Assembly (NCBI GenBank): GCA_026195275.1
Contig: JAPHQU010000002.1
Span: forward strand, 69,964 to 133,963
Length of the DNA: 64,000 nt
From: Minisyncoccota bacterium
GTDB lineage: Bacteria > Patescibacteriota > Minisyncoccia > Phycocordibacterales > JABMNX01
Direction: 5' to 3'
The notes below the pieces were generated by a model. That model did not search any database. It was not told the DNA's origin and was given only the letters and a program-made list of their open reading frames with translations. The first letter of the stretch is position 1; each line of letters opens with the position of its first letter. Positions 46,274 through 60,429 of this stretch are shown one piece after another. A program made the translations under genes and the position numbers.

Positions 46274-47443
46274 TCAATTAGAGCGGGTCAGGATTGGTTG
46301 ATCAATGTCTATCGCAGGTACTATGCCGTAGCTTGAAAGAGCGCCCTGTAAGTAGTGAAAAAACTCTGGACTAGGTGGAGGAAACTTTGGGTGCTGAATT
46401 ATTTTGCCGCACACTTCTCCGTGTTCTGCTTCGTGCTCAGTTTGATAATGGTAGGAGTAGTTGGTGAAGAATACAGCGTTCAAAGGGTATTCCTCTGGTG
46501 GTAGGTCTTTCAGTTTCCGATCAACGATAGATTTTACGTCCTTGATCCATTGTTTGTCGTCCGCGGGAACATCTGGGGTCGGAGGAGTGTTTACGTCAAT
46601 GAATACTGCGAATGGCACGTCCTTCGGATTTTGTTCAAGTGCCTCCTTGAACAATCGTTTTATTACGCGAGCAGAGTACAGTTTTTCTAAAGGTTGCAAT
46701 AAGCCAGTTTCGTGGAGTACACCACTTCTTTTCTTGCTCTTTGCTTCAACGGCGAGTACGGCTTTGGTTTCTCTATGTGTAGCGATAAACTCACAGTGCT
46801 TATTCTTGCTATTTTCGTCAGTGAACTCAATATCACAATCTAGTCGTGCAAATATTGCCGCGATTGCAATCTCGTACCGTGCACCTTGATAGTGTTCGCG
46901 TGTCTTTAGGCGATCCAGTAGTGAAGGTGGCAAGTTGCGCGTATGTATCAAGCTACACACATCAAAGGCGAGAAGTAACAAACTTTTTGAGTATCCGTCT
47001 GGCTTTGCTCCCCACACTTCGTCGCTGACACGTTCCGCTACCTTTTCGTTGCGCTCAATCCATTCACCAAGCTTCTCCAGACACAAAGATATAAAGTGTC
47101 GTTCCTCTTGAGGTAGTTCTGTTTGTGCACGGAACCAGTCAAGCCCGATTGTTTCTTTGAGTATTTGGATAATGAAGCTATGGAATGTCGTGTTGGTGGG
47201 AATATCTGCATATACTTTATTCCCAAGAGCAAACACTTTTTTACCTTTGAACACGATCGGCTTTACATAGTTGATGTGTATCCCTGCTTGCTTCAGGTAC
47301 TCTTGTCTGGCTACTACTTCTCTAAAGTGTTCAATAACTTCTGGCGGAATATCATTGCTTTGGTCTTTGTTCATACAGCATCTTTTATATTTTTTTCCAC
47401 TTCTACAGGGACAAGGTTGGTTTCTTCCAGTACGAGCATTCAT
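46274..47443 (-). CDS. SEC-C motif protein with possible PD-(D/E)XK-like nuclease core
   Basis: N-terminal PCPCRSGKKYKRCC is a SEC-C metal-binding motif. Downstream, DCDIEF...LAVEAKSKK resembles the D...(D/E)xK nuclease motifs (tentative). Confidence 0.55.
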   Translation of the reverse strand: MNARTGRNQPCPCRSGKKYKRCCMNKDQSNDIPPEVIEHFREVVARQEYLKQAGIHINYVKPIVFKGKKVFALGNKVYADIPTNTTFHSFIIQILKETIGLDWFRAQTELPQEERHFISLCLEKLGEWIERNEKVAERVSDEVWGAKPDGYSKSLLLLAFDVCSLIHTRNLPPSLLDRLKTREHYQGARYEIAIAAIFARLDCDIEFTDENSKNKHCEFIATHRETKAVLAVEAKSKKRSGVLHETGLLQPLEKLYSARVIKRLFKEALEQNPKDVPFAVFIDVNTPPTPDVPADDKQWIKDVKSIVDRKLKDLPPEEYPLNAVFFTNYSYHYQTEHEAEHGEVCGKIIQHPKFPPPSPEFFHYLQGALSSYGIVPAIDIDQPILTRSN

Positions 47444-48344: not shown

Positions 48345-49910
48345 ATGAAAAAAGCCACAAAATCAACCAAAAAGAAAACAGAAAGTGCTGGACGATTTGA
48401 GGCACAACTTTTCAAAGCGGCAGACAAACTCCGAAAGAACATAGACGCGGCTGAGTACAAACACGTTGTACTCGGTCTTATTTTTCTGAAGTTCATATCA
48501 GACGCATTTGATGTGCACTACCAGAAACTTGCCTCGGGTAAGGGTGAATATGAGGGTGCCAACCCAGAGGATCAAGACGAATACAAAGCAGAAAACGTAT
48601 TTTGGGTACCGCCAGAAGCGCGGTGGGCACACCTTCATTCACGCGCAAAGTTGCCGAGTATCGGTAAGGATTTGGACGCGGCAATGGAGGCGATTGAGCG
48701 AGCCAACCCGACACTCAAGGGTATCCTCCCGAAAGAGTACGCAAAACCAAACTTGGACAAGGTAGCACTCGGTGGTTTGGTAGACCTTATTGCAGACGTT
48801 GCACTCGGCGAGGAAAGCGAAAAATCAAAAGACCTTATTGGACGTGTGTATGAGTACTTTCTCGGCGAGTTCGCTTCGCTTGAAGGCAAGAAGGGCGGGC
48901 AATTCTACACTCCTAGAAGCATTGTTGAACTTATGGTGCAAATGATAGAGCCAATGACGGGACGTGTGTACGACCCTGCGTGTGGTTCGGGTGGAATGTT
49001 TGTGATGAGCGAGAAGTTTGTGCTCGCACATCGCGGGCGTTTGGAAGACATTTCTATTTACGGACAAGAGAGCAACCACACCACCTACCGCCTTTGCCGT
49101 ATGAACCTCGCGCTTCGCGGAATAGATGGCTCGCAAGTGAAATGGAATAGCGAAGGGTCATTTCTCAAAGACGCACACCCTGACCTCAAAGCGGATTACA
49201 TTTTGGCAAATCCGCCTTTCAACCAAAACGACTGGGGCTGGGACATTCTCAGAAACGACGCTCGTTGGAAGTACGGTTTGCCGCCAGAAGGCAACGCAAA
49301 CTATGCGTGGCTTCAACATATGATCCACCACCTTTCTCCAAAAGGTGTAATGGCAACGGTACTTTCAAATGGTTCGCTTTCCTCCAACCAAGGTGGCGAA
49401 GGAGAACTGCGAAAGAAACTTGTGGAGGAGGATATGGTGGACTGTATCGTTGCGCTTCCAAACCAACTTTTCTACAACACAGGCATTCCTGCTTGTTTGT
49501 GGTTTATCTCACGTAAGCGCATTGGCAACGGCGACAGGAAACGCACAGGAGAAGTGCTATTTATAGACGCGTCGCAAATGGGGGCGCTGGTAGACCGAAC
49601 GCACAGAGAGTTTACCGAGGAGGACATCAAAAAGATTGCGGGCACGTATCACGAGTGGCGACAGAAAAACAACAAGTACAAGGACATCAAGGGCTTCTGC
49701 AAATCATCATCACTCGCGGAGATACAAAAGAACGGCTACGTGCTCACGGCAGGGCGCTATGTGGGTATTGCAGATGGCGCGAAAGACAGCGAGCCGTTTG
49801 AGGAGAAAATGACGCGGCTCACCAGTACCCTCAAGGAGCAAATGGAGCAGGAGCAGACCTTGAACGAGGAAATAAAGAAGCAACTGAAAAAAGTTGGATT
49901 TGAACTATGA
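48345..49910 (+). CDS. hsdM: Type I restriction-modification system methyltransferase subunit
   Basis: N-terminal LFKAADKLRKNIDAAEYKHVVLGLIFLKFISD, motif I DPACGSGGM and motif IV NPPFN. Confidence 0.92.
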   Translation: MKKATKSTKKKTESAGRFEAQLFKAADKLRKNIDAAEYKHVVLGLIFLKFISDAFDVHYQKLASGKGEYEGANPEDQDEYKAENVFWVPPEARWAHLHSRAKLPSIGKDLDAAMEAIERANPTLKGILPKEYAKPNLDKVALGGLVDLIADVALGEESEKSKDLIGRVYEYFLGEFASLEGKKGGQFYTPRSIVELMVQMIEPMTGRVYDPACGSGGMFVMSEKFVLAHRGRLEDISIYGQESNHTTYRLCRMNLALRGIDGSQVKWNSEGSFLKDAHPDLKADYILANPPFNQNDWGWDILRNDARWKYGLPPEGNANYAWLQHMIHHLSPKGVMATVLSNGSLSSNQGGEGELRKKLVEEDMVDCIVALPNQLFYNTGIPACLWFISRKRIGNGDRKRTGEVLFIDASQMGALVDRTHREFTEEDIKKIAGTYHEWRQKNNKYKDIKGFCKSSSLAEIQKNGYVLTAGRYVGIADGAKDSEPFEEKMTRLTSTLKEQMEQEQTLNEEIKKQLKKVGFEL

Positions 49911-50938
49911 GCGAAAAAATAACAACAGAAAATGTATTTGAGGTAGATGTTCCAGCATTGGCACTGGACAGCCGCTTTGGCAGTTTGGTATTTGAAAACG
50001 CCAACAAAAAACTCGGTAAGGCGCAAGCGTTTCTGAAAGAAGTGTACGATCTTGGCTATCAAGAACTTCTCAACGAAAGTGGTATAAATCAGGTTGGAAA
50101 TCTAACCAACAAACTGACGGAGCATTTGGAATGGCTTCGCAACTTTGATATTGGTACAGTTGCAAACGCAAAGCAGGAGCACGACAACTTTGAAAGTCGT
50201 ATTGACGGCTTCTATAACGATATTTACGAGCAGATACTGATGAGAACGCTCCCGTTCCTCCGAGAGGAGCGCCGTCGCGAAAACCCTGACCAAAAACAGT
50301 TGGATGAGGAGGTAAAGAAAGCAGTACAGGTACGCACTGAGCTTGAGGATGAACTAAAAGCAATACGCGAGGAAACTCAAAAAATCCGCACTGCAAATAA
50401 ACAAGTTGGTTCCGCTAAGGGTCAGAGGGCGGCAGTACAAATGGCGGCACACTTTGATGATGAAGTAGAACGCTATGCAACTCTCTCAAAGTATTGGCTT
50501 TGGGGCGTTGTAGGCGGATATGTCGCTATTGTTGCAGTTCTTGTTTGGCTCGGGTTTGTTACCGCCTCATATGTACATCAAATCGTCTCTTTGCCCGACA
50601 CCGTGGACACGAGTGGTATCTGGAGCGCTGTGATCTCAAAACTCGTTATCTTGGCGGCGCTATGGTATGGCTTATCGTTCGTTATCAAAAACTACAACGT
50701 GAACTCTCATTTGGCGGCAGTAAACCGACACCGCGCCGCAGTGGCACGAACTCTGGAGGACTTCATAGCGGTAGAACAACAGCAGGAAAATCCGCGCTTG
50801 TCGGAAGTGCTACAGCACGCTTCCGAAGCAATGTTCAAGAATGTGCCGATTGGTTTCGTCTCTAAGACAGAACGCGAACAAAGCAATCCCGTGCTTCAGA
50901 TAGTGAATGACCTGATCGGGATAAAGAACAACACATAG
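49907..50938 (+). CDS. Embedded gene X1: coiled-coil N-terminal domain plus 2-TM membrane protein, function unknown
   Basis: 343 aa. The start overlaps the hsdM stop (ATGA). TM helices are WLWGVVGGYVAIVAVLVWLGFV and SAVISKLVILAALWYGLSFVI. No motif recognised. Confidence 0.6.
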   Translation: MSEKITTENVFEVDVPALALDSRFGSLVFENANKKLGKAQAFLKEVYDLGYQELLNESGINQVGNLTNKLTEHLEWLRNFDIGTVANAKQEHDNFESRIDGFYNDIYEQILMRTLPFLREERRRENPDQKQLDEEVKKAVQVRTELEDELKAIREETQKIRTANKQVGSAKGQRAAVQMAAHFDDEVERYATLSKYWLWGVVGGYVAIVAVLVWLGFVTASYVHQIVSLPDTVDTSGIWSAVISKLVILAALWYGLSFVIKNYNVNSHLAAVNRHRAAVARTLEDFIAVEQQQENPRLSEVLQHASEAMFKNVPIGFVSKTEREQSNPVLQIVNDLIGIKNNT

Positions 50939-50941
50939 TAT

Positions 50942-51535
50942 ATGGAAATCGTTTATATTCTCACCAACCAAGCAATGCCCGACTACGTGAAGGTTGGGCG
51001 CACCAAAGACCTCCAGCAAAGGTTGAAAAGTTTGTATCGCACACCCGTGCCACTTCCTTTTGAGGTGTTCTATGCGTGCACTGTTGAGAACTCTATGGAA
51101 GTAGAGGCGTGGCTGTTTGAGATTTTTGACGATAGGCGGGTGAGCAAAGAGCGAGAGTTTTTTGAGATAGCGCCAGAGCGCGTTGCCGCGGCATTGCGTG
51201 CACGAGCGGTGCAGGAGGTAACCCCGAAGCAGACGTACACAGAGAACAAAGAGGACGAGGTGGCACTGGAAAAGGCACGCTCAAAACGCGACAAGTTCAA
51301 CTTCGCAATGGTGGGTATTCCTGCTGGTGCTGAACTTACCTTCAGTAGAGACGAGAATATAAGGGCGCGGGTAGTAGACAACCACAACATTGAATACAAC
51401 GGCAAGGTAACGAGTTTGTCTACCTCGGCACAGGAAATACTTGGCTACAACTATGGAGTGGCGGGCACGTTGTATTGGTCGTATGAAGGCGAAACTCTCC
51501 ACGCGCGGCGCGTGCGAATGGAGGAAGGAGAATGA
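50942..51535 (+). CDS. Embedded gene X2: T5orf172 (GIY-YIG-like) + DUF4357-like domain protein
   Basis: N-terminus IVYILTNQAMPDYVKVGRT...REFFE is T5orf172-like. The C-terminal part KFNFAMVGIPAGAELTF...SLSTSAQEILGY...WSYEG is DUF4357-like. This family is commonly found inside type I R-M loci. Confidence 0.65.
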   Translation: MEIVYILTNQAMPDYVKVGRTKDLQQRLKSLYRTPVPLPFEVFYACTVENSMEVEAWLFEIFDDRRVSKEREFFEIAPERVAAALRARAVQEVTPKQTYTENKEDEVALEKARSKRDKFNFAMVGIPAGAELTFSRDENIRARVVDNHNIEYNGKVTSLSTSAQEILGYNYGVAGTLYWSYEGETLHARRVRMEEGE

Positions 51536-52797
51536 ATATGAGCACGACGACACAATGGAAAAAAGGATTTTTATACGAGATCGCGACGGTAGTCGGGGGC
51601 TATGCATTCCGAGGTGAGGATTTTGGAAGTGAAGGAACTGCCGTCATAAAAATAAAAGACATTCAGCCGCCGTATGTTGATATTCAAAATGCCGAAAGGA
51701 TAGATCAACAGAAGTACAATCAACAAAAGATTGAGAAGTTCAAACTTTCAAAGGGAGATTGTTTAGTCGCTATGACTGGAGCGACGATAGGAAAGGTTGG
51801 AAAGATTTCGTATGACGAGGTTTCTTATCTGAACCAACGAGTAGCAAAGGTGGCGGAAAAGAGAGGTGTGGCGGATAAGAACTTTGTTTACTACGCGGTT
51901 TTAGGTAGTGATTTCCAGCGATACGTGAACACAACCTCATCTGGTAGCAGTGCTCAGCAAAACATTAGCGCCGATGATATAGGGCGTTTTCCTATTGTTT
52001 ATCCCATAGACATAAAAGATCAATGTACAATCGCGCAAGTTCTCATCAGTTTAGACAAAAAGATTGAGTTGCTACGGAAGCAAAACGAGACGCTGGAGGA
52101 AATGGCGAGGGCGATTTTCAACGCGTGGTTTGTGGAGTTCAACTTTCCAGATAAGGACGGTAAGCCATACAAAGCGTCTGGCGGGAAAATGGTAGACAGT
52201 GAATTTGGCGAAATCCCAGAGGAATGGCGCGTCGGTACTCTTGCCGAACTTATAGATCAGTTGAGTGAACGCATTGGCTCTGATGAGCAGTCAAAGTACA
52301 CGGTTATGTCTGCAGTAAACACAGGGCAACTCGTGCCTTCAAGTGAGTATTTTACTAAACAGGTTTTTAGTAAGAGCATTTCAAAATACATCAAAATCCA
52401 CCAAGGAGATTTTGCATACAATCCAGCACGTATCAACATCGGTTCTATTGGGAGATTGCGAGAACTTATCTTGGGAGCTGTTAGTCCTGTATATGTCGCG
52501 TTTCGCGCAAAAGAAGGCGCGGGAGCGTTTGTTGATTTCTTGATCCAGACGGCAAAAATGAAAAAACATATTGAACTCTATGCTAACGGGTCAGTGCGGC
52601 AAACACTTGACTATGACGGTTTCGGAGCATTTTCTTTTGCAGTTCCAACGGAAAATATCCTGAAAGAGTTTGACAAGATCACTGCTTCTCTACGGAATAT
52701 TTTTGAACGGAAGGAAGCCCAGATTGAGAACCTGCGAACTGTTCGGGATTTACTACTGCCAAAACTAATGAGCGGAGAGGTTCGCGTAAATACGTAA
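51532..52797 (+). CDS. hsdS: Type I restriction-modification system specificity subunit
   Basis: Two target-recognition halves separated by the conserved central helix region LLRKQNETLEEMARAIFNAWFVEF. C-terminal LRTVRDLLLPKLMSGEV. Start overlaps the X2 stop. Confidence 0.85.
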   Translation: MNMSTTTQWKKGFLYEIATVVGGYAFRGEDFGSEGTAVIKIKDIQPPYVDIQNAERIDQQKYNQQKIEKFKLSKGDCLVAMTGATIGKVGKISYDEVSYLNQRVAKVAEKRGVADKNFVYYAVLGSDFQRYVNTTSSGSSAQQNISADDIGRFPIVYPIDIKDQCTIAQVLISLDKKIELLRKQNETLEEMARAIFNAWFVEFNFPDKDGKPYKASGGKMVDSEFGEIPEEWRVGTLAELIDQLSERIGSDEQSKYTVMSAVNTGQLVPSSEYFTKQVFSKSISKYIKIHQGDFAYNPARINIGSIGRLRELILGAVSPVYVAFRAKEGAGAFVDFLIQTAKMKKHIELYANGSVRQTLDYDGFGAFSFAVPTENILKEFDKITASLRNIFERKEAQIENLRTVRDLLLPKLMSGEVRVNT

Positions 52798-52801
52798 ACA
52801 T

Positions 52802-53458
52802 ATGGAAAGCACAGTAGAAAAAATCACCGATACAGTATCCGACGCATTCAGAAGCATAGCCGAGATTGCAAAGGAGCGAATATTTACGCCAATGTATTTC
52901 TACTTCCTTGGTGCGTGGCTCATTACCAACTGGAAGTTTGTGTACACATTCTTTTTTGCTGATGAAAAACTGATACTTGAACACACTGGAATGTTGAAAG
53001 TTGAGTATCTGACGCAAATCTATCCTCACGACTGGACGGCGGTATTTCCGTTATTTGTTATACCGTTCGGGCTCGCGTATTTGGCAGTTTGGTGGTTCTC
53101 TGTCGTTTCCGAGAGGTTTTATAAAAAACACGAGGAGCACCAAATGAATAAGCGTGTGATCAAGCGCGAAGTTGAGTACCGCGAGAAGGTGGCATATTTC
53201 AAATCAGAGCGTGAAGTACGCGAGCAACAACTTGATCCGCAGGTGAAGTATGAGGAGAACAGGGACTACAACGAGCAAATAGACGAGAGCAATCCAGAGG
53301 TGGAAGTGAATGGAGTGCCTATGTTGCCAAGCGAAGTTTTGTATAAAACGGATTACCTTGCATATAAAACAGGGCTAGACGAATATACAGCAGAACTCGC
53401 ACAGAAGGGCGAGGATTTGGCAGTTCAGGCAGAAATAGACCGCCGACGCGGAAAATGA
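52802..53458 (+). CDS. Embedded gene X3: 2-TM membrane protein with charged C-terminal tail, function unknown
   Basis: 218 aa. Helices are [22 protein letters not shown] and [22 protein letters not shown]. Its stop overlaps the hsdR start (ATGA). Confidence 0.55.
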
Positions 53459-56400
53459 TTATGACCAAAATATACGAAAGCGATATAGAACTGTGGGTGA
53501 TAGAACTGCTGGAAAAGCAGGGTTATGTGTATCTATCTCCAGAGGAACAAGAAGCAGAGCGCCCCGATATGCGCGAGGTTGTTTTGCGTACGCGACTTAC
53601 AGAAGCGGTGGCGCGGCTCAACCCGCTAGTACCAAAGGACGCACAAGACGACGCGATACGGCAAGTAATAAACCTCTCGCCACAGCACTTGGTGGAAAGC
53701 AACGAGACATTCCAGAAAATGCTCACTGACGGAGTGAGCGTGGAGGTGGCGGGCGATCAGGGTGGCACACGTGGCGAAGTGGTGCACCTGATTGATTTTG
53801 CTAACCCAGAAAATAACGACTTGGTGGTAACCAATCAGTTCATTATTCCGTACGACCACACGAGTAAACGTCCAGACGTGGTGCTTTTAGTAAATGGACT
53901 ACCGCTTGCCGTGATTGAACTCAAAAATCCTGCGGACGAAAACGCGACGGTACACAAGGCGTTCACGCAACTCCAAAACTACAAAGACGCAGTGCCACAA
54001 CTCTTTACCTACAACGGCATTCTTGTTGCCTCTGACGGTTTGGATACTCGTGTCGGTTCACTCACGGCTCCGTGGGAGCGCTTTGTGGTGTGGCGTGCAC
54101 CTGAGGATAAAAAACACGGCGAGGATAAACGCCCGCAAATGGAAACGGTAGTTGAGGAAATGTTGAAACCCGCAGTGCTTCTGGATTTGATACGCAACTT
54201 CACGGTGTTTGAAAAGGTGAAAAAAGAGAACAAAGAGACAGGGCTGGTAGTGGTGGAAAGTGTAAAAAAGGTTGCGGCATACCACCAGTACTATGTGGTC
54301 AACAAGGCGATCAACTCAACGCTTCGCGCTACCGAGGAGCACGGAGAGCGCAAAATTGGTGTGGTGTGGCACACACAGGGATCGGGCAAATCCCTCTCTA
54401 TGGTGTTTTATACAGGCAAAGCGGTGCTTGCACTCAATAACCCGACGGTAGTGGTGATTACCGACCGCAACGATTTGGACGACCAGTTGTTTGATACATT
54501 TGCGGCGAGCCGCGGGCTTCTGCGCCAAGAGCCAGTACAGGCAGAAAGCCGAGCACATTTGAAAGAACTCTTACAGACCGCAGGAGGCGGGATTGTGTTT
54601 ACGACCATCCAAAAGTTTTTCCCCGAGGACGGCGGCGAGACATACGATCAACTGACCGACCGCAAAAACGTAGTGGTGATTGCAGACGAAGCGCACCGTA
54701 GCCAATACGGATTTGCCGCTCGTACGGTATTCAAAGATGACGAAGCGATTACCCGCTATGGCAACGCAAAATATTTGCGCGATGCACTTCCGAATGCCTC
54801 ATTCATTGGTTTTACGGGCACACCGATTGAAAGCACTGATCGCTCCACCCCTGCCGTGTTTGGTGAATACCTTGATGTGTACGACATTCAAGACGCAGTG
54901 CGCGATGGCGCTACTGTTCCTATCTACTACGAGAGCAGATTGGCAAAAGTACACCTGCCAGAGGAAAAAAGTGAGGAAATAGACGCAGACGTGGAAGCAG
55001 TGGCAGAAGGTTTGGAGTTCACCGCAAAGGAAAAAGCGAAGGCGAAGTGGGCGCAATTGGAAGCAATCATTGGCAACCAAGAACGCCTGAAAGAGATAGC
55101 GAAGGACTTGGTGGTGCACTTTGAAGCGCGACAGGAAGTGAACGTGGGCAAGGCAATGATTGTGGCGATGAGTAGACGCATTGCCGTTGATTTGTACCGC
55201 GAGATAGTGGCACTTCGCCCAGAGTGGTACAACGACGATTTGGAGAAAGGTGCAATCAAAGTTGTAATGACGGCGAACTCGTCAGACCCGAAGGAGTTTC
55301 AGCCACACCACACGAATAAAGAAGCACGACGACGACTTGCCGATCGTTTCAAAGACGCGGGAAGCGACCTCAAACTAGTTGTGGTGTGCGATATGTGGCT
55401 CACAGGATTTGATGTGCCGTCTTTGCACACAATGTACATAGACAAACTTATGCGCGGACACAATCTTATGCAGGCGATTGCCCGCGTGAACCGCGTCTTT
55501 AGAGATAAGGAAGGAGGTCTTATCGTGGACTACATTGGTTTTGCCGCCGACCTCCAGAAAGCACTCGCCGTGTATACGGGAAGCGGTGGTACAGGAAGCC
55601 CGACCGTAACTCAAGACAAGGCGGTGGAGATAATGCTGGAGAAATACGAAGTCGTGAAGCAAATGTTCCACGGCTTTGACTACCACCGTTACTTCACGCT
55701 TGATACTCGTGGCAAACTCGGGCTTATTTTGGAAGCGCAGGAGCACGTCTTGGCGCAAGACAATAAAGTACCCGCAGAGGGCGAAAAGAAGTCCCAGAGC
55801 CCTTCAGAGCGCTTTATACACGAGGTTACAGCCCTCTCTAAGGTCTTTGCCATTGCGGTGCCACACGAGGAGGCACTGGCGATACGCGACGAAGTGGCAT
55901 TTTTCCAAACAATCAAAGCCCGCTTGATCAAGTTTGACCCAGACCCGACCAACTGCCGCGAGGATATAGAGACGGCAATACGACAGATTGTAGATAAGGC
56001 AGTGGTTACCGAAGGCGTAGTGGATATTTTCCAAGTCGCGGGTATTCCAAAGCCAGACATTTCCGTGCTCTCGGACGAGTTCCTTGCAGAGGTGCAGGGA
56101 ATGAAGCACCAGAATGTCGCAATGGAACTTATGAAGCGGCTCCTCAATGACGAAATACGCTCACGATTGCGAAAGAACCTCATACAAGGAAAGAAGTTCT
56201 CAGAAATGCTCGGTAAGACCATCACGAAGTATCAGAACAACCTCCTCACTGCCGCCGAAGTCATACAAGAACTCATTGCGCTTGCGAAAGAATTACGCGG
56301 TGCAGATGAACGCGGTGAGGATTTGGGACTTTCTGACGATGAACTCTCGTTCTATGACGCATTGGCAAACAACGAAAGTGCTCGTGATGTAATGAACGAC

Positions 56401-56613
56401 GAGACACTTCGCGATCTTGCGCGAGTGCTGGTAGACAGGGTACGGGCGAGTGCCACGGTGGACTGGACGATACGCGAGAACGTAAAAGCAAAGTTGCGCG
56501 TCTTGGTAAAACGTACGCTCGCCAAGTACGGCTATCCACCAGACAAGCAGGCAATCGCTACGGAAACCGTGCTCAAACAGGCGGAACTTTTCGCTGATGA
56601 TTGGGCGAAATAA
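53455..56613 (+). CDS. hsdR: Type I restriction enzyme endonuclease/helicase subunit
   Basis: N-terminal nuclease domain, SF2 motifs ([16 protein letters not shown]) and a length of 1052 aa. Confidence 0.92.
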
Positions 56614-56619
56614 AGTTTT

Positions 56620-57366
56620 ATGAAAAAGAGAGAAAACAAAAAGGCGCTTCTACAAGCGCAGGAGAAAATGTATTTGTATCTGACTTCTCTTGCGTCAGAT
56701 CAGTCATTTCTCGCACGAGTAACAGAAATACGGGAAAGGTATGGAATACCCGAAGGTGGTTTTGAAAGTGATTTGAAGGACGAGTTTGAGTTTATAAACT
56801 CACTCCCCAAGGGAAACGAAGCGGATTTCCAAAAAGAAATATACGACCTTGCAGAGAGTTTCAATGCCTCTCTTGCGTGGCTCACGAATATTCGCGATTA
56901 CGTACTTTACAATGACTTCTTTTTTACGAAAGTTTCCCCTTTGGTTGAAATGGTTGATGTGCTCGGTCTTACAGACGAGATAGTAGAAATGGACGTAGAT
57001 TTGTATGAGGAATACGAAGTGGACGAAAACGCAGTCGTGCGGCGGGTACTCAACAATCTGACTAACAGTTATCCGCTTGCAATTTTTGTTTCGCCTTATG
57101 CAACAGGTCGCGACATAATAGATTTTATAAAAAAGAACAAAACTAGCATTGAAACTCTCCAGAACAAACACTGTGATAGTGATGTGCGGATTGGCAAGGT
57201 GAGAAAAAGAAAAGCGAACGTACAGGAGAGGGATTTGTTCATTTGTAACAACAAACACCTTTCTGCCAAGGTGCTAATGAGTAAAGTGAACGAGAAGTTT
57301 GGTACACAACTGGACTACGATTACATAAACAAAATCATTGCCAAAAAGTGCCCGCGAGGAAAATAA
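56620..57366 (+). CDS. Embedded/trailing gene X4: hypothetical acidic protein, function unknown
   Basis: 248-aa ORF starting 7 bp after the hsdR stop. No motif recognised. Confidence 0.5.
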   Translation: MKKRENKKALLQAQEKMYLYLTSLASDQSFLARVTEIRERYGIPEGGFESDLKDEFEFINSLPKGNEADFQKEIYDLAESFNASLAWLTNIRDYVLYNDFFFTKVSPLVEMVDVLGLTDEIVEMDVDLYEEYEVDENAVVRRVLNNLTNSYPLAIFVSPYATGRDIIDFIKKNKTSIETLQNKHCDSDVRIGKVRKRKANVQERDLFICNNKHLSAKVLMSKVNEKFGTQLDYDYINKIIAKKCPRGK

Positions 57367-57919
57367 GTGGGCTCACTTGTAGTCCTATATCACAAATACA
57401 TTTCCTCCTACTCTGGCTTCTAGGTCAGAGTTTTTCTTTGACCTGAACAATCAGCTCAGACGAGGACAGAACCTTCCCTCTGCCTCGGAAAAAACAATCA
57501 AACGGGAATAGTGAGAGGTTTTCAGATCACGCGGGCGGGAGAACCGCCCCCCTAATCTGAAAATCTCCTAGGAAGGTGTTGGAGGAAAGTTGGGACATTG
57601 GAAAAGAGAGGACGAACGGCGGGCTGACCTTTTGCCCAACACTGTCCATCTCTCTTTTGCTCCGATCCTTCTCTGAACTGTACATACCCACCTCTCCCTT
57701 TTGGGTAGGGTGCCCAACTCCCTAATGTCTTTAGGGAAAGCGGGAGATATGGAAAAGATTTTATGGATATACCAGACGAAAAAATCCAGAAACTCCGAGA
57801 GATATACCGTAAAGAATACGGGGTTGAAATCTCTGACGAGGAGGCAAAAGTACTCGGCGAATATCTCGTGAACCTTTTTCGTGCTGTATACAATGTTTGA
57901 AATCCTATAGAATAAACTT

Positions 57920-59662
57920 ATGCGTACACCACCGTCAGACCTCAAATATTTCCTCTATGCTCGCAAGTCCACGGAAAGCGAGGATAGACAGGCGGCTTCC
58001 ATTGAGGATCAGGTTTCCGAAATGAAGCGTTTGGCAGAGCGGTTGGGTATTCAGATTGCGGAAGTAATCACCGAAAGCCATTCAGCAAAGAAACCGAACA
58101 ATCGTCCCCAGTTTACAAAAATGATGGAGCGTATTCACGCAGGAGAAGCCAATGCAATCTTGTGTTGGAAACTCAACCGCCTTGCCCGCAATCCCATAGA
58201 CGGAGGTTTGGTGAGTTGGTCGCTTCAACAAGGAATAATCCAGCACATTCAGACCTTCGGCGGTGGTTTCAGTCCAGACGATAATGTGCTCCTTATGCAG
58301 GTTGAGTTTGGTATGGCAAACCAGTATGTGAAGGATTTGAGCGTGGACACTAAGCGAGGTATGCGTAAGAAGGCAGAGCGTGGCTGGTATCCTGCTGGCG
58401 TGCTTCCTGCGGGCTATGAGCACCGCCCAAGCGCAAGCAACACGGGTGAGGACGAGATTGTGCCGAATGATGATTTTTCACTGGTAAAGAACCTGTGGGG
58501 TAAGTTGCTCACGGGGCGCTATACGATAATGGACATAAAACGCGAGGGAGACAGAATAGGATTGCGTAATCGCAAGGGACAGAAATATTCAAAAAATAAC
58601 TATTATGCGATGTTTGCCAATGAGTTCTACGCTGGTTGGTTTTATTGGGTGGACGAAAATGGAGTACACCAGCGCGTCCACGGCAAACACAAGGCAATGA
58701 TTAGCGAGGAGGAGTTTAGGAAAGTGCGTATTTTCCTTGGCAACCAAGGCGGCAAGAATAGATTGGTACGGTACACGTTCCCATTCAGGGGGAAAATGGT
58801 GTGTGGCGAATGTGCACGAATGATTACCGCCGAGCAAAAGATACAGGCGCGGTGTACGAACTGTCGGCACAAGTTTTCAATCAAACACACGAACGTATGC
58901 CCGCAATGCGAGACGGTGCTACAAGATATGGATAGTCCGCACATTGTGGATCGTACCTATTACATCTGCGTTGGTGCTACCAAGAAAATTTGCTCACAGC
59001 GCGGTGCCGTAGAGCAGGGCGAACTTACGAAGCAAATAGACCAAATCCTTCAGAATGTCTCTATCCCCAAGAGTTTCCACGAGTGGGCTGTGGACGCAGT
59101 GAAGCACGTAACCGAAAAGGACGCGGTTGAGGATGGAGCGACGCTAAACGTAATGCGGAACCGTGAGAGCGACCTTGAACAGCAGTTGAACGAGGTAACA
59201 GTTATGCGTGCCCGTCAGGAGATAACCCCTGCACACTTCAGCAAGACAATGGCAAGGATTGAAAAAGACCTTACCGATATTCGCGGAGAGATTGGCAAAA
59301 TGCACAAAAGCAAGATTGACTGGGGGCACATAGCGAACCAGTACCTCACCTTTGCAGAGACAGCGCAGGAGCGCTTTGAGAATGGAGACACGGCGACCAG
59401 AAAACTGATACTGGAGTGTATTAGTCCGAACCTGCTTTTGAAGGACAAAAAACTAAGCGTTGTAATGCCAAAACCACTGTTGGGTGTACGCTCTGCCTTC
59501 AATGTGCTATCCACTGACGTGCTGGGGTTAGAACCAGAAAAAGCCCTTGCGGGGCAAGGACTTTTTCAACGTATTGAACCCTCAAATACAATCGGGCTCC
59601 GCCTAGTAGACGACGTTCGAACCTATTGCCTTAGTGTACAAGTTAATCTTTTTGGAATTTAA
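57920..59662 (+). CDS. Large serine recombinase (resolvase/integrase family)
   Basis: N-terminal catalytic domain YARKSTESEDRQ...NAILCWKLNRLARN. Then a recombinase domain and a zinc-ribbon (CGECARM...CTNCRH...CPQCE), with a coiled-coil C-terminus. Length 580 aa. Confidence 0.85.
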   Translation: MRTPPSDLKYFLYARKSTESEDRQAASIEDQVSEMKRLAERLGIQIAEVITESHSAKKPNNRPQFTKMMERIHAGEANAILCWKLNRLARNPIDGGLVSWSLQQGIIQHIQTFGGGFSPDDNVLLMQVEFGMANQYVKDLSVDTKRGMRKKAERGWYPAGVLPAGYEHRPSASNTGEDEIVPNDDFSLVKNLWGKLLTGRYTIMDIKREGDRIGLRNRKGQKYSKNNYYAMFANEFYAGWFYWVDENGVHQRVHGKHKAMISEEEFRKVRIFLGNQGGKNRLVRYTFPFRGKMVCGECARMITAEQKIQARCTNCRHKFSIKHTNVCPQCETVLQDMDSPHIVDRTYYICVGATKKICSQRGAVEQGELTKQIDQILQNVSIPKSFHEWAVDAVKHVTEKDAVEDGATLNVMRNRESDLEQQLNEVTVMRARQEITPAHFSKTMARIEKDLTDIRGEIGKMHKSKIDWGHIANQYLTFAETAQERFENGDTATRKLILECISPNLLLKDKKLSVVMPKPLLGVRSAFNVLSTDVLGLEPEKALAGQGLFQRIEPSNTIGLRLVDDVRTYCLSVQVNLFGI

Positions 59663-60191
59663 GCAAATCAGTTTTAGAAAACAATCTTCTGTCAGTTGAT
59701 TCTTTTATCATTCCAAATGATGGATTTTTACTGAAACCTATATACTCCACTTTCTTAGCTTTTGCTTTGATGACATATTTTATAGCAGGAATCAAATCTG
59801 TATCAGAACTAATTACTATCGCAGTGTCATACAAATTATCAACTGCACCTACAACTAAATCTACTGATAATTTAATATCAACACCTTTTTCTCTGATGCT
59901 GTTATTGTCGTACATTATTCGACCTCTTTTAATATCAAAATTTTCGGACTCCAGTCCTGCTAAGAATTTTTGTTGCCCTTTAACCATTTTCTCTCCTTTC
60001 TCTGTATTGTTAAAATTTTTAACTATGCCGATATAGTATCTTTTTGAAACAAGATTACGTTCACCAACAAGATGTTCGACAAAAGATGAGTAATCAAACT
60101 TCATTTCTCTTTCTGGCATCTCGGATTCCTTTAGTCTTTGGTAAGTATTTCCACCATCTATATAAATAGCAACTTTTTCTTTCTTAAACAT
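59643..60191 (-). CDS. NYN-domain (LabA-like) putative RNase
   Basis: KVAIYIDGGNTYQ N-terminal NYN motif and SSDTDLIPAI. It overlaps the recombinase 3' end by 20 bp in convergent orientation. Confidence 0.7.
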   Translation of the reverse strand: MFKKEKVAIYIDGGNTYQRLKESEMPEREMKFDYSSFVEHLVGERNLVSKRYYIGIVKNFNNTEKGEKMVKGQQKFLAGLESENFDIKRGRIMYDNNSIREKGVDIKLSVDLVVGAVDNLYDTAIVISSDTDLIPAIKYVIKAKAKKVEYIGFSKNPSFGMIKESTDRRLFSKTDLLKFQKD

Positions 60192-60239: not shown

Positions 60240-60356
60240 TGCTGTTAGTACGTATATGATTACATAATTTATAAAATAAATCAAGAGGACTGTTGATATG
60301 TTTATTTGATAAATTAGTTGAGAATAGCTCTAAAAAATAAGGTTATTTTTACTCTG

Positions 60357-60429
60357 CTCCACGGACAGGGCTCGAACCTGTGACCCAGCGATTAACAGTC
60401 GCTTGCTCTACCAACTGAGCTACCGTGGA
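60357..60429 (-). tRNA. tRNA-Asn (anticodon GTT)
   Basis: Hand-folded cloverleaf: acceptor tccacgg/ccgtgga, D-arm gctc-agttggtag-agc, anticodon stem agcga/tcgct with loop ctGTTaa, and T-arm acagg-ttcgagc-cctgt. CCA is not encoded. Confidence 0.85.

Follow-up and report, generated by a model that had tools for sequence, protein, structure and literature searches.

Location of X3 in a Type I restriction-modification operon

The stretch of DNA analyzed here (the window) comprises 64,000 nucleotides (nt) from a Minisyncoccota bacterium (assembly GCA_026195275.1, contig JAPHQU010000002.1, positions 69,964 to 133,963 of the forward strand). It carries a Type I restriction-modification (R-M) operon in which a small gene, X3, is placed between hsdS and hsdR. 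A preliminary description of this gene had proposed a 218 amino acid (aa) protein with two aromatic-rich transmembrane (TM) helices and a charged tail, co-translated with the restriction subunit and possibly the partner of X1, another gene product of the same operon. The genes of the operon, in window coordinates, are as follows.

48345..49910, + strand: hsdM, Type I methyltransferase subunit, the first backbone gene (Pfam N6_Mtase 6.7e-109, HsdM_N 1.9e-25)
49907..50938, + strand: X1, a 343 aa coiled-coil protein of no family, with hydrophobic helices at about 196-229 and 235-261 by hydropathy
50942..51535, + strand: T5orf172 (GIY-YIG-like) gene in the hsdM-hsdS slot (Pfam T5orf172 9.9e-17; PADLOC PDC-S57 1.8e-67)
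51532..52797, + strand: hsdS, specificity subunit (Pfam Methylase_S 1.3e-13)
52802..53458, + strand: X3, a complete open reading frame (ORF) of 218 aa with an ATG start, stop codon included
53455..53458, + strand: ATGA, in which the X3 TGA (53456-53458) overlaps the hsdR ATG
53455..56613, + strand: hsdR, restriction/translocase subunit (Pfam HSDR_N 6.8e-49, SWI2_SNF2 1.9e-79, T1RH-like_C 2.8e-132)

The extent, strand and length of the X3 ORF were exactly as first described, the Pfam matches upheld the identities of both neighbors, and the overlap of the X3 stop codon with the hsdR start codon is real in the window. On the other side, hsdS ends with TAA at 52795-52797, leaving a spacer of 4 nt before the X3 ATG at 52802. 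HsdM, HsdS and HsdR are encoded on one strand with Pfam scores far over threshold, both here and in the related loci described below. The closest solved relative of the window HsdR was the HsdR of EcoR124I, matched with an E value of 1e-37 across the N-terminal half. For X1, searches of Pfam, NCBIfam and PADLOC returned weak coiled-coil-type matches and no family.

Position and inheritance of X3 in related operons

Scanning one genome for each species yielded 10 X3 loci, to which metagenome look-ups added a further nine distinct ones. The genome-scan loci came from Flavobacteriaceae (Nonlabens, Mangrovimonas and Flavobacterium), Parabacteroides, Patescibacteria, Gracilibacteria, a gammaproteobacterial metagenome-assembled genome (MAG) and Arcobacteraceae. 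The hosts belong to at least four phyla, including Bacteroidota, Patescibacteria/Gracilibacteria, Gammaproteobacteria and Arcobacteraceae. The gene directly upstream of X3 was hsdS in 18 of 18 loci, and hsdR lay downstream in 16 of 16, counting loci with flanks and reading two candidate-phyla loci with genetic code 25; hsdM lay upstream in all loci whose contig extends so far. The co-occurrence with R-M genes, which the preliminary description had named as its own test, was thus found throughout. No copy of X3 was encountered outside the hsdS-hsdR position in the loci, plasmids or viral contigs searched. In loci L002 and L004, from Patescibacteria and Gracilibacteria MAGs, we observed that hsdM, hsdS, X3 and hsdR are fragmented under code 11 and full-length under code 25, in which TGA is a sense codon.

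The distances between the genes differed strongly from one junction to the next. The hsdS-X3 gap was between -7 and +17 nt in all 15 operons, while the one between hsdM and hsdS varied from -4 to 3344 nt and the one between X3 and hsdR extended up to 5028 nt, both being filled by changing cargo. In 9 of 15 operons genes are inserted between X3 and hsdR, so that the stop-start overlap in the window is not a feature of the family, and junctions of the translational-coupling type around X3 were found in 4 of 15. The conserved junction is hsdS-X3, not X3-hsdR. Co-translation with hsdR was consequently overstated in the first account: the ATGA fits translational coupling in the window, but in the family as a whole X3 goes with the 3ʹ end of hsdS.

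The cargo of the hsdM-hsdS and X3-hsdR slots included DUF4145 with GmrSD_N, a Schlafen/AlbA_2 ATPase, PDDEXK_4, AAA_15 with DUF3226, and coiled-coil/TM proteins. In the closest relative, L012 (93% X3 identity), and in L014 (62%), DUF4145 and GmrSD_N stand in place of X1, and in L012 in place of T5orf172 as well. The proposal that X3 is a partner of X1 was not borne out. Among the 15 X3 loci covering the hsdM-hsdS interval, an X1 homolog was found in one (L013 4943-5932, same slot, 2e-147), and none was present in the ten genome-scan loci; X1 as a conserved partner of X3 is ruled out by these counts. T5orf172 was not found in any other X3 locus and looks like recently acquired cargo. X1 and T5orf172 therefore behave as swappable cargo, and X3 as a fixed part of the operon lineage.

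Two further observations concern the cargo itself. Coiled-coil/TM proteins not detectably related to X1 occur in either slot of other operons (L014 9964-10821, L001 7149-7841 and L001 7945-8841) and seem to be a recurring theme; a BLASTP comparison of X1 with those of L014 (285 aa) and L001 (298 aa) gave no significant match. In the Arcobacteraceae MAG locus (L010 8516-10271), an AAA_15/AAA_21 ATPase and a DUF3226 (Toprim-like) protein are encoded as a pair between X3 and hsdR, a two-gene cassette of a type seen in known defense systems.

The divergence of X3 followed that of its operon. Pairwise identity of X3 was correlated with that of HsdM (r = 0.75) and HsdR (r = 0.73) but not with that of HsdS (r = 0.31), the latter being expected because target-recognition domains swap. 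The window HsdM is 63-97% identical to the HsdM of other X3 loci, and X3 is kept down to 51% HsdR identity. In neighbor-joining trees of HsdM and of HsdR, which are crude, the X3-bearing systems formed a single clade in each. The sister clade consisted of operons on cyanobacterial plasmids, with HsdM 64-65% identical to that of the window and no X3. The corresponding slots of these operons held toxin-antitoxin (TA) modules, PIN, DUF6883/DUF4926, a protein combining Abi_C with the C-terminal domain (CTD) of X3, and other genes. An earlier candidate statement, that every operon of this HsdM lineage has X3, is ruled out by these plasmid operons. They also indicate that restriction as such does not depend on X3; that these operons lack it is uninformative on a possible coupling of X3 to the enzyme. 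Within one Type I clade, X3 thus occupies a fixed place behind hsdS, in the order hsdM-(cargo)-hsdS-X3-(cargo)-hsdR.

A second, unrelated membrane-anchored protein was observed in the same slot of an Acinetobacter bereziniae plasmid operon whose HsdM is 58% identical to that of the window. This protein (L031 11742-12770) is a DUF2939 protein (PADLOC PDC-S55, 2.7e-66) with an N-terminal membrane anchor, encoded between hsdS and hsdR.

A conserved and unnamed protein family

In a search of 5.8 billion proteins, X3 homologs formed at least 76 clusters at 90% identity, 93-35% identical to X3 and of similar length. A profile search of 1.84 billion representatives returned 22 clusters with E < 1e-30, 169 with E < 1e-10 and 1192 with E < 1e-3. 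The alignment of 69 X3 sequences has 19 invariant columns, and the window protein agrees with all 19. Conservation of this extent (at least 76 clusters, 19 invariant columns) indicates more than a chance ORF. The family is recognized by a hairpin of the form F-[ST]-P-M-Y-F-Y-F-x2-[AS]-W-x-[IV]-[TI]-N-W-[KR]-F, by V-W-W in the second helix and by a motif in the CTD, all of which are present in the window protein, as is the gene placement directly 3ʹ of hsdS and 5ʹ of hsdR.

Searches for a named relative were negative in every collection. Pfam, NCBIfam and PADLOC v2.0.0 held no family for X3, with sub-threshold noise as the best matches (Sterol_MT_C 0.0045, Trp-rich protein 0.025) and no PADLOC family at E ≤ 0.1. 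Across the 76 clusters, no Pfam domain was found except a fused KTSC in two; an extra C-terminal KTSC domain (7.3e-21) was seen on the X3 of L004 and on P0034/P0046. Against all PDB chains, the X3 profile gave chance matches to the GABA-B receptor alone (E ≥ 0.04), and Foldseek found no solved structure in the PDB similar to the X3 model. The match to an Rz-like spanin in PHROGs (E 0.012) was not significant. No X3 relative was found in the viral contigs of IMG/VR and no X3 match in 72,556 plasmids, and GenBank phages gave a match at the level of the CTD alone. No published description of the family was found in the searchable literature. X3 is therefore a real, conserved and unnamed family.

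Predicted architecture of X3

The AlphaFold2 model of X3, built on the 69-sequence alignment, had a mean predicted local distance difference test (pLDDT) score of 78.9. It consists of a low-confidence helix (2-27), a helix at 30-52, two short loop helices and a single helix at 78-143, followed by a CTD with a helix (150-163), a hairpin (167-174) and two helices (176-183 and 185-215) at pLDDT 84-88. The segments map to the window as follows.

52889..52957, + strand: helix 1 (TM1), residues 30-52, P-M-Y-F-Y-F-x3-W-x3-N-W-K-F
53048..53110, + strand: helix 2 (TM2), residues 83-103 (hydrophobic from about 78 to 103), a robust TM segment that runs on into the charged helix
53111..53236, + strand: charged helix, residues 104-145, with 12 K/R and 10 D/E, predicted to be cytoplasmic
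53237..53416, + strand: CTD, residues about 146-205, an acidic alpha/beta domain of about 60 aa with Y-E-x-N-x-[DE]-[FY]-N...L-P-S-E-V-L-Y-x-T-D-Y-x-A-Y-K

TM2 is clearly hydrophobic, its best 19-residue Kyte-Doolittle window being 2.04 in the window protein against a family mean of 2.08. TM1 is 43% aromatic, and its hydropathy is marginal here (1.14; family mean 1.58, range 0.97-2.14). Taking hydropathy together with the lengths of the AlphaFold helices, two TM helices are probable, and X3 is very probably inserted in the membrane. In the model, TM1 is made up of helices 30-42 and 44-52 with a kink at the invariant N43. TM1 is also the most conserved segment of the protein: conservation reaches 90% or more in 11 of 23 columns, the mean top-residue frequency is 0.79, and the invariant residues are P30, M31, Y32, F33, Y34, F35, W39, N43, W44 and F46. 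The conserved columns include the polar residues N43 and K45, which is unusual for a mere anchor and argues that the hairpin is not a generic one.

K and R residues were enriched after helix 2, with a mean of 6.3 in the following 22 residues compared with 1.9 in the loop. This distribution suggests an N-in/C-in topology, which would likely place the CTD in the cytoplasm alongside the R-M enzymes and phage proteins. The charged C-terminal region reported earlier does exist, yet calling it a tail is incorrect: a long helix continuous with TM2 is followed by a folded acidic alpha/beta domain. X3 is thus modular: an aromatic two-helix hairpin comes first, then an extended charged helix and finally the acidic alpha/beta CTD.

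The CTD in other proteins of the hsdS-hsdR slot

The CTD of X3 was also found on proteins related to Abi_C, a family of HEPN proteins, that are encoded in the same slot of three plasmids. In a Picosynechococcus plasmid, the 219 aa protein WP_065715433 is encoded flush after hsdS, with its stop codon touching hsdR; its CTD was recognized by hhalign at 92.5%, and its N-terminal part matched Abi_C below threshold and AbiJ at 5.7e-4. The protein WP_310819800 of a Paraburkholderia plasmid, annotated as abortive infection family, matched Abi_C (2.7e-20) and, by hhalign, the CTD (97.8%, E 7e-13), and its gene is located between hsdS and hsdR. The third, WP_032037798 of an A. baumannii plasmid, occupies this slot in a Type I system that is only remotely related, its HsdR being at 26% identity.

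A hidden Markov model (HMM) of the CTD built from X3 sequences alone was run against 1724 ORFs, comprising all those of the non-X3 loci and small proteins. It retrieved the three slot proteins (2.6e-17, 4.5e-9 and 9.7e-9, the last for WP_032037798) and phage proteins, and nothing else, which indicates that the CTD matches are not circular. As a control, three Abi_C homologs lacking the CTD, in which the match ends before it, were not located in Type I operons. By sequence comparison, therefore, the CTD is common to X3 and to Abi_C/HEPN proteins of the same hsdS-hsdR slot on three plasmids. A 190 aa protein in which an amidohydrolase-like N-terminus is fused to the C-terminal half of an X3 (P0131, L044 175-747) was considered as a third CTD architecture; it lies on a 1.3-kb contig and is most likely an assembly chimera, and it was not used.

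Free CTD proteins of phages

The first phage match of the X3 CTD, found by tblastn, was an 83 aa early-region protein of Stenotrophomonas phage Jojan60 (hhalign 96.5%, E 8e-10), and weak matches were obtained to PHROGs 9294, 37123 and 9396. These free CTD proteins fall into three PHROGs whose function is unannotated; they are 59-108 aa long and carry a net charge of -10 to -27. A tblastn search located them in the genomes of 126 GenBank phages, of which 94 were Escherichia phages, and those listed were mostly rV5-like. Others occurred in phages of Campylobacter, Proteus, Gordonia and Microbacterium. Gene 0104 of Bas59 (Escherichia phage EduardKellenberger, bas59_0104; L045 2387-2728) is one such copy. 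In Jojan60 the gene is placed among small early genes beside the terminal repeat, and in Proteus phage RS8pmA (Autographiviridae) it is ORF6 (L046 3367-3582), located at 3.4 kb in the left-end early region. The annotation of RS8pmA ORF6 as "phosphonoacetylaldehyde hydrolase" looks mistaken for this 71 aa acidic protein.

The AlphaFold model of one free CTD protein (pLDDT 89.6, predicted template modeling score 0.76) had the same helix-hairpin-helix-helix order as the CTD in the X3 model. When the X3 model was compared with viral predicted structures using Foldseek, small uncharacterized phage proteins came out on top, aligning over about 50-60 residues with a root-mean-square deviation of 0.7-2.4 Å (E 0.02-0.5), and the model of the free phage protein found nothing in the PDB. 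In charge and early-gene position, the free CTD proteins are reminiscent of the DNA-mimic anti-restriction proteins Ocr and ArdA; comparison of the CTD and the free phage proteins with these mimics gave no match in Pfam and no fold match in the PDB by Foldseek. A general anti-restriction role was also considered for them. The Vequintavirinae, however, are reported to be exceptionally susceptible to R-M systems (BASEL study, PMC8594841), and this sensitivity of the rV5-like carriers weakens the proposal and makes such a role in E. coli unlikely.

Proteins that share the hairpin

Beyond the X3 family, a wider superfamily (E 1e-10 to 1e-25), mostly from Patescibacteria, shares the hairpin and the charged helix alone and ends in other C-terminal domains, for example ...TEKGKYFL.... 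Its members had no Pfam or PADLOC match. Homologs of the hairpin also occur in the phage families PHROGs 4780, 22645 and 24478. Four genomic contexts of hairpin relatives, of the Patescibacteria type, were inspected: two were housekeeping contexts, one was uninformative, and one lay directly after a Type II R-M pair. The last of these proteins, P0232 (325 aa with a different C-terminus; L027 7001-7978 and L028 2634-3611, JGI metagenome contigs), is encoded 37 nt past the methyltransferase of an NmeDI_C-type Type II pair, which hints at a link between the hairpin and R-M systems beyond Type I.

Surroundings of the operon

The features on either side of the R-M genes are as follows.

46274-47443, - strand: 389 aa protein upstream of the island, with an N-terminal SEC-C metal-binding motif (3.5e-8)
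56620..57366, + strand: 248 aa ORF of no family, 7 nt past hsdR, with a guanine-cytosine content of 0.41, the lowest in the cluster
57410-57431: terminator-like hairpin, the best in the cluster
57920..59662, + strand: large serine recombinase (Pfam Resolvase 1.2e-18, Recombinase 7.7e-6)
59643-60191, - strand: NYN-domain gene, overlapping the 3ʹ end of the recombinase gene
60356-60429, - strand: tRNA-Asn

The terminator-like hairpin follows the last ORF of the cluster (56620..57366), and no sigma-70-like promoter was found on the + strand within the cluster; together these two observations weakly suggest a single transcription unit. A serine recombinase gene also lies 3ʹ of the operon in the relatives L012 and L014, and its presence makes it probable that the R-M cluster belongs to a mobile island. 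ORFs at the position of the 248 aa ORF are present in L012-L014 (216-225 aa) and have no detectable homology to it. In the 389 aa protein, nothing was recognizable beyond SEC-C, and its weak PADLOC matches were restricted to that motif.

X3 as a possible restriction-linked effector

The closest precedent for a gene such as X3 is prrC of the EcoprrI Type IC operon, whose product, the anticodon nuclease PrrC, turns active once restriction is inhibited (PMC3632139, PMC12707154). PrrC is the textbook latent suicide effector, held in check by the Type I enzyme and freed when restriction is blocked (PMC3632139, PMC12707154). In the order hsdM-hsdS-prrC-hsdR, as in the X3 operons, a gene foreign to R-M is located on the same strand between hsdS and hsdR, and the HsdR accompanying X3 is most like that of the Type IC enzyme EcoR124I among solved structures. 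The Abi_C/HEPN-CTD proteins of the slot are mechanistic cousins of PrrC that have the CTD in common with X3. The resemblance does not extend to the proteins themselves. Unlike PrrC and RloC, X3 matches no ATPase family in Pfam, NCBIfam or PADLOC and so lacks their ABC-type NTPase domain, its N-terminal half being a hydrophobic hairpin instead; nor does it have their HEPN nuclease domain, and its conserved columns contain no R-x4-6-H motif. No similarity of X3 to PrrC was found in sequence or fold, and X3 may, as a presumption, be regulated by the R-M enzyme.

Compared with Abi_C (PF14355)/AbiJ, X3 resembles the slot-resident subset, which has a similar length (219-240 aa) and the X3 CTD at its end, but gives no profile match, and its N-terminal two thirds are the hairpin and the charged helix and not HEPN. 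The embedded PADLOC candidates (PDC-S55 = DUF2939, PDC-S57 = T5orf172) and TgvAB follow the same embedding logic as X3, and PDC-S55/DUF2939 is, like X3, membrane-anchored in the hsdS-hsdR slot of the related Acinetobacter operon. Typical embedded cargo differs from X3, which is fixed in position and diverges together with the R-M backbone. Small membrane effectors of abortive infection, superinfection exclusion and the holin-like type are similar to X3 in size, two-helix hairpin, cytoplasmic charged region and defense context, although X3 shows no detectable homology to any of them.

From this comparison, we propose that X3 may act on the membrane as an abortive-infection effector linked to restriction in the manner of PrrC, the CTD serving as its coupling or sensing module, and we give this reading a rough probability of 0.4; toxicity, membrane insertion and contact with HsdM, HsdS or HsdR are what we infer in making it. 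The hairpin would be embedded in the cytoplasmic membrane, its two ends and the CTD facing the cytoplasm. Through the CTD, the effector would be connected with the R-M system or with some indicator of failed restriction. The effector itself would be the hairpin, and the trigger might be, for example, a phage factor that disables or overwhelms restriction. Once triggered, the hairpin would assemble, the membrane would turn leaky and the infected cell would stop. This would follow the logic of EcoprrI and its PrrC, the anticodon RNase being replaced by a membrane effector.

Speaking for the proposal are the fixed place of X3 next to hsdS, its inheritance together with the operon backbone, the occurrence of the CTD on toxin-type proteins of the same slot, the conservation of TM1 and the likely topology. 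Defense functions are over-represented among the genes that lie embedded in Type I operons (bioRxiv 10.1101/2024.01.29.577857), and the fellow embedded genes of the X3 operons and their relatives are of the defense or toxin type (GmrSD_N, PDC-S57, PDC-S55, PDDEXK_4, AAA_15 with DUF3226, and TA modules), which speaks for the proposal. Several points weigh against it. Type I operons without X3 exist in the sister clade at 64-65% HsdM identity. Two of the four contexts of hairpin relatives are housekeeping ones, which is not expected of a toxin, and neither sequence nor fold relates the hairpin to a known pore former, holin or Abi membrane protein. Two of the three Abi_C assignments are under the Pfam threshold, and the occurrence of CTD effectors with Type I systems down to 26% HsdR identity argues against a tight, lineage-specific fit to HsdR or HsdM. 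The sample of loci is also biased, since X3 loci were found via X3 and the X3-less operons came from plasmids alone.

A bolder extension of the coupling idea assigns the leading part to the CTD. It would be a portable plug-in interface wiring varied suicide effectors, the X3 hairpin as well as HEPN RNases, to the state of the Type I enzyme, and the free phage copies would attack the same enzyme surface or jam the guardian. We consider this extension doubtful.

Other explanations of X3

Alternatively, X3 could be an autonomous embedded defense gene, acting in membrane abortive infection or superinfection exclusion, that uses the operon for expression and co-transfer alone and whose CTD senses a phage component directly. 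Both slots of the Type I operons in this lineage are hot spots for the insertion of unrelated stand-alone defense or toxin genes, and embedded systems are usually self-sufficient according to the guilt-by-embedding literature (bioRxiv 10.1101/2024.01.29.577857; TgvAB). Against autonomy, X3 was never found away from its place between hsdS and hsdR in the loci, plasmids and viral contigs searched and was kept through deep divergence as all neighboring cargo was exchanged. The phage homologs in PHROGs, known for the hairpin and the CTD alike, fit exclusion genes of the prophage type, and the association of CTD effectors with very different Type I families points in the same direction; within the Abi_C family, however, the CTD correlates with the R-M slot. 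On balance we regard autonomy as somewhat unlikely.

It is also conceivable, and in our view unlikely, that X3 is not toxic at all. It might be a tether whose CTD binds the enzyme and whose hairpin keeps it at the inner membrane, the site of foreign DNA entry, or a regulator that sequesters or limits HsdR during establishment of the island. X3 is co-inherited with HsdM and HsdR in the manner of a subunit and is placed tightly between hsdS and hsdR, with coupling-type junctions in some operons, as such a role would lead one to expect, and closely related operons nonetheless lack any tether of this sort. A passive anchor would not need TM1 as its most conserved segment with invariant polar residues. 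That the same CTD is carried by HEPN/Abi_C proteins, which are toxin or RNase modules and not localization devices, argues against a tether as well, whereas the non-defense contexts of the wider hairpin relatives agree with it. For a regulator, the large serine recombinase of the island implies that establishment in naive hosts is a recurring problem. Holubova and co-workers reportedly found E. coli Type I enzymes associated with the cytoplasmic membrane.

The weakest explanation, two parts of one membrane complex formed by X3 and X1, is very improbable: each has two hydrophobic helices, they share one operon and an X1 homolog stands alongside X3 in L013, but X1 is missing in 14 of 15 other X3 operons, is replaced by DUF4145 and GmrSD_N in the closest relative, and is not detectably related to the other coiled-coil/TM proteins of the slots.

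Significance

As a kind, an accessory gene with a probable abortive-infection role within a Type I operon is already known. What is new with respect to Pfam, NCBIfam, PADLOC v2, the PDB and the searchable literature is the X3 family, its membrane module, its subunit-like fixation behind hsdS and the shared CTD, which connects X3 with HEPN toxins and with a large uncharacterized phage family. With PrrC as the classic suicide effector backing up restriction, the finding bears on how far this logic extends and on how an effector reads the state of the enzyme. Within one Type I lineage that extends across several phyla, Patescibacteria among them, X3 behaves like a fourth fixed gene, and its CTD relates it to HEPN toxins of that slot as well as to many uncharacterized acidic phage proteins, some of them in well-studied coliphages (rV5-like phages of the BASEL collection). 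If the coupling were untrue, X3 would still be a new candidate defense gene missing from current defense-finder libraries. If it were true, X3 would be a second, mechanistically different restriction guardian, with a candidate phage counter-measure; and if the CTD were indeed a plug-in interface, X3 would be the first membrane-acting "restriction guardian", and the CTD would offer a handle on how failed restriction is sensed.

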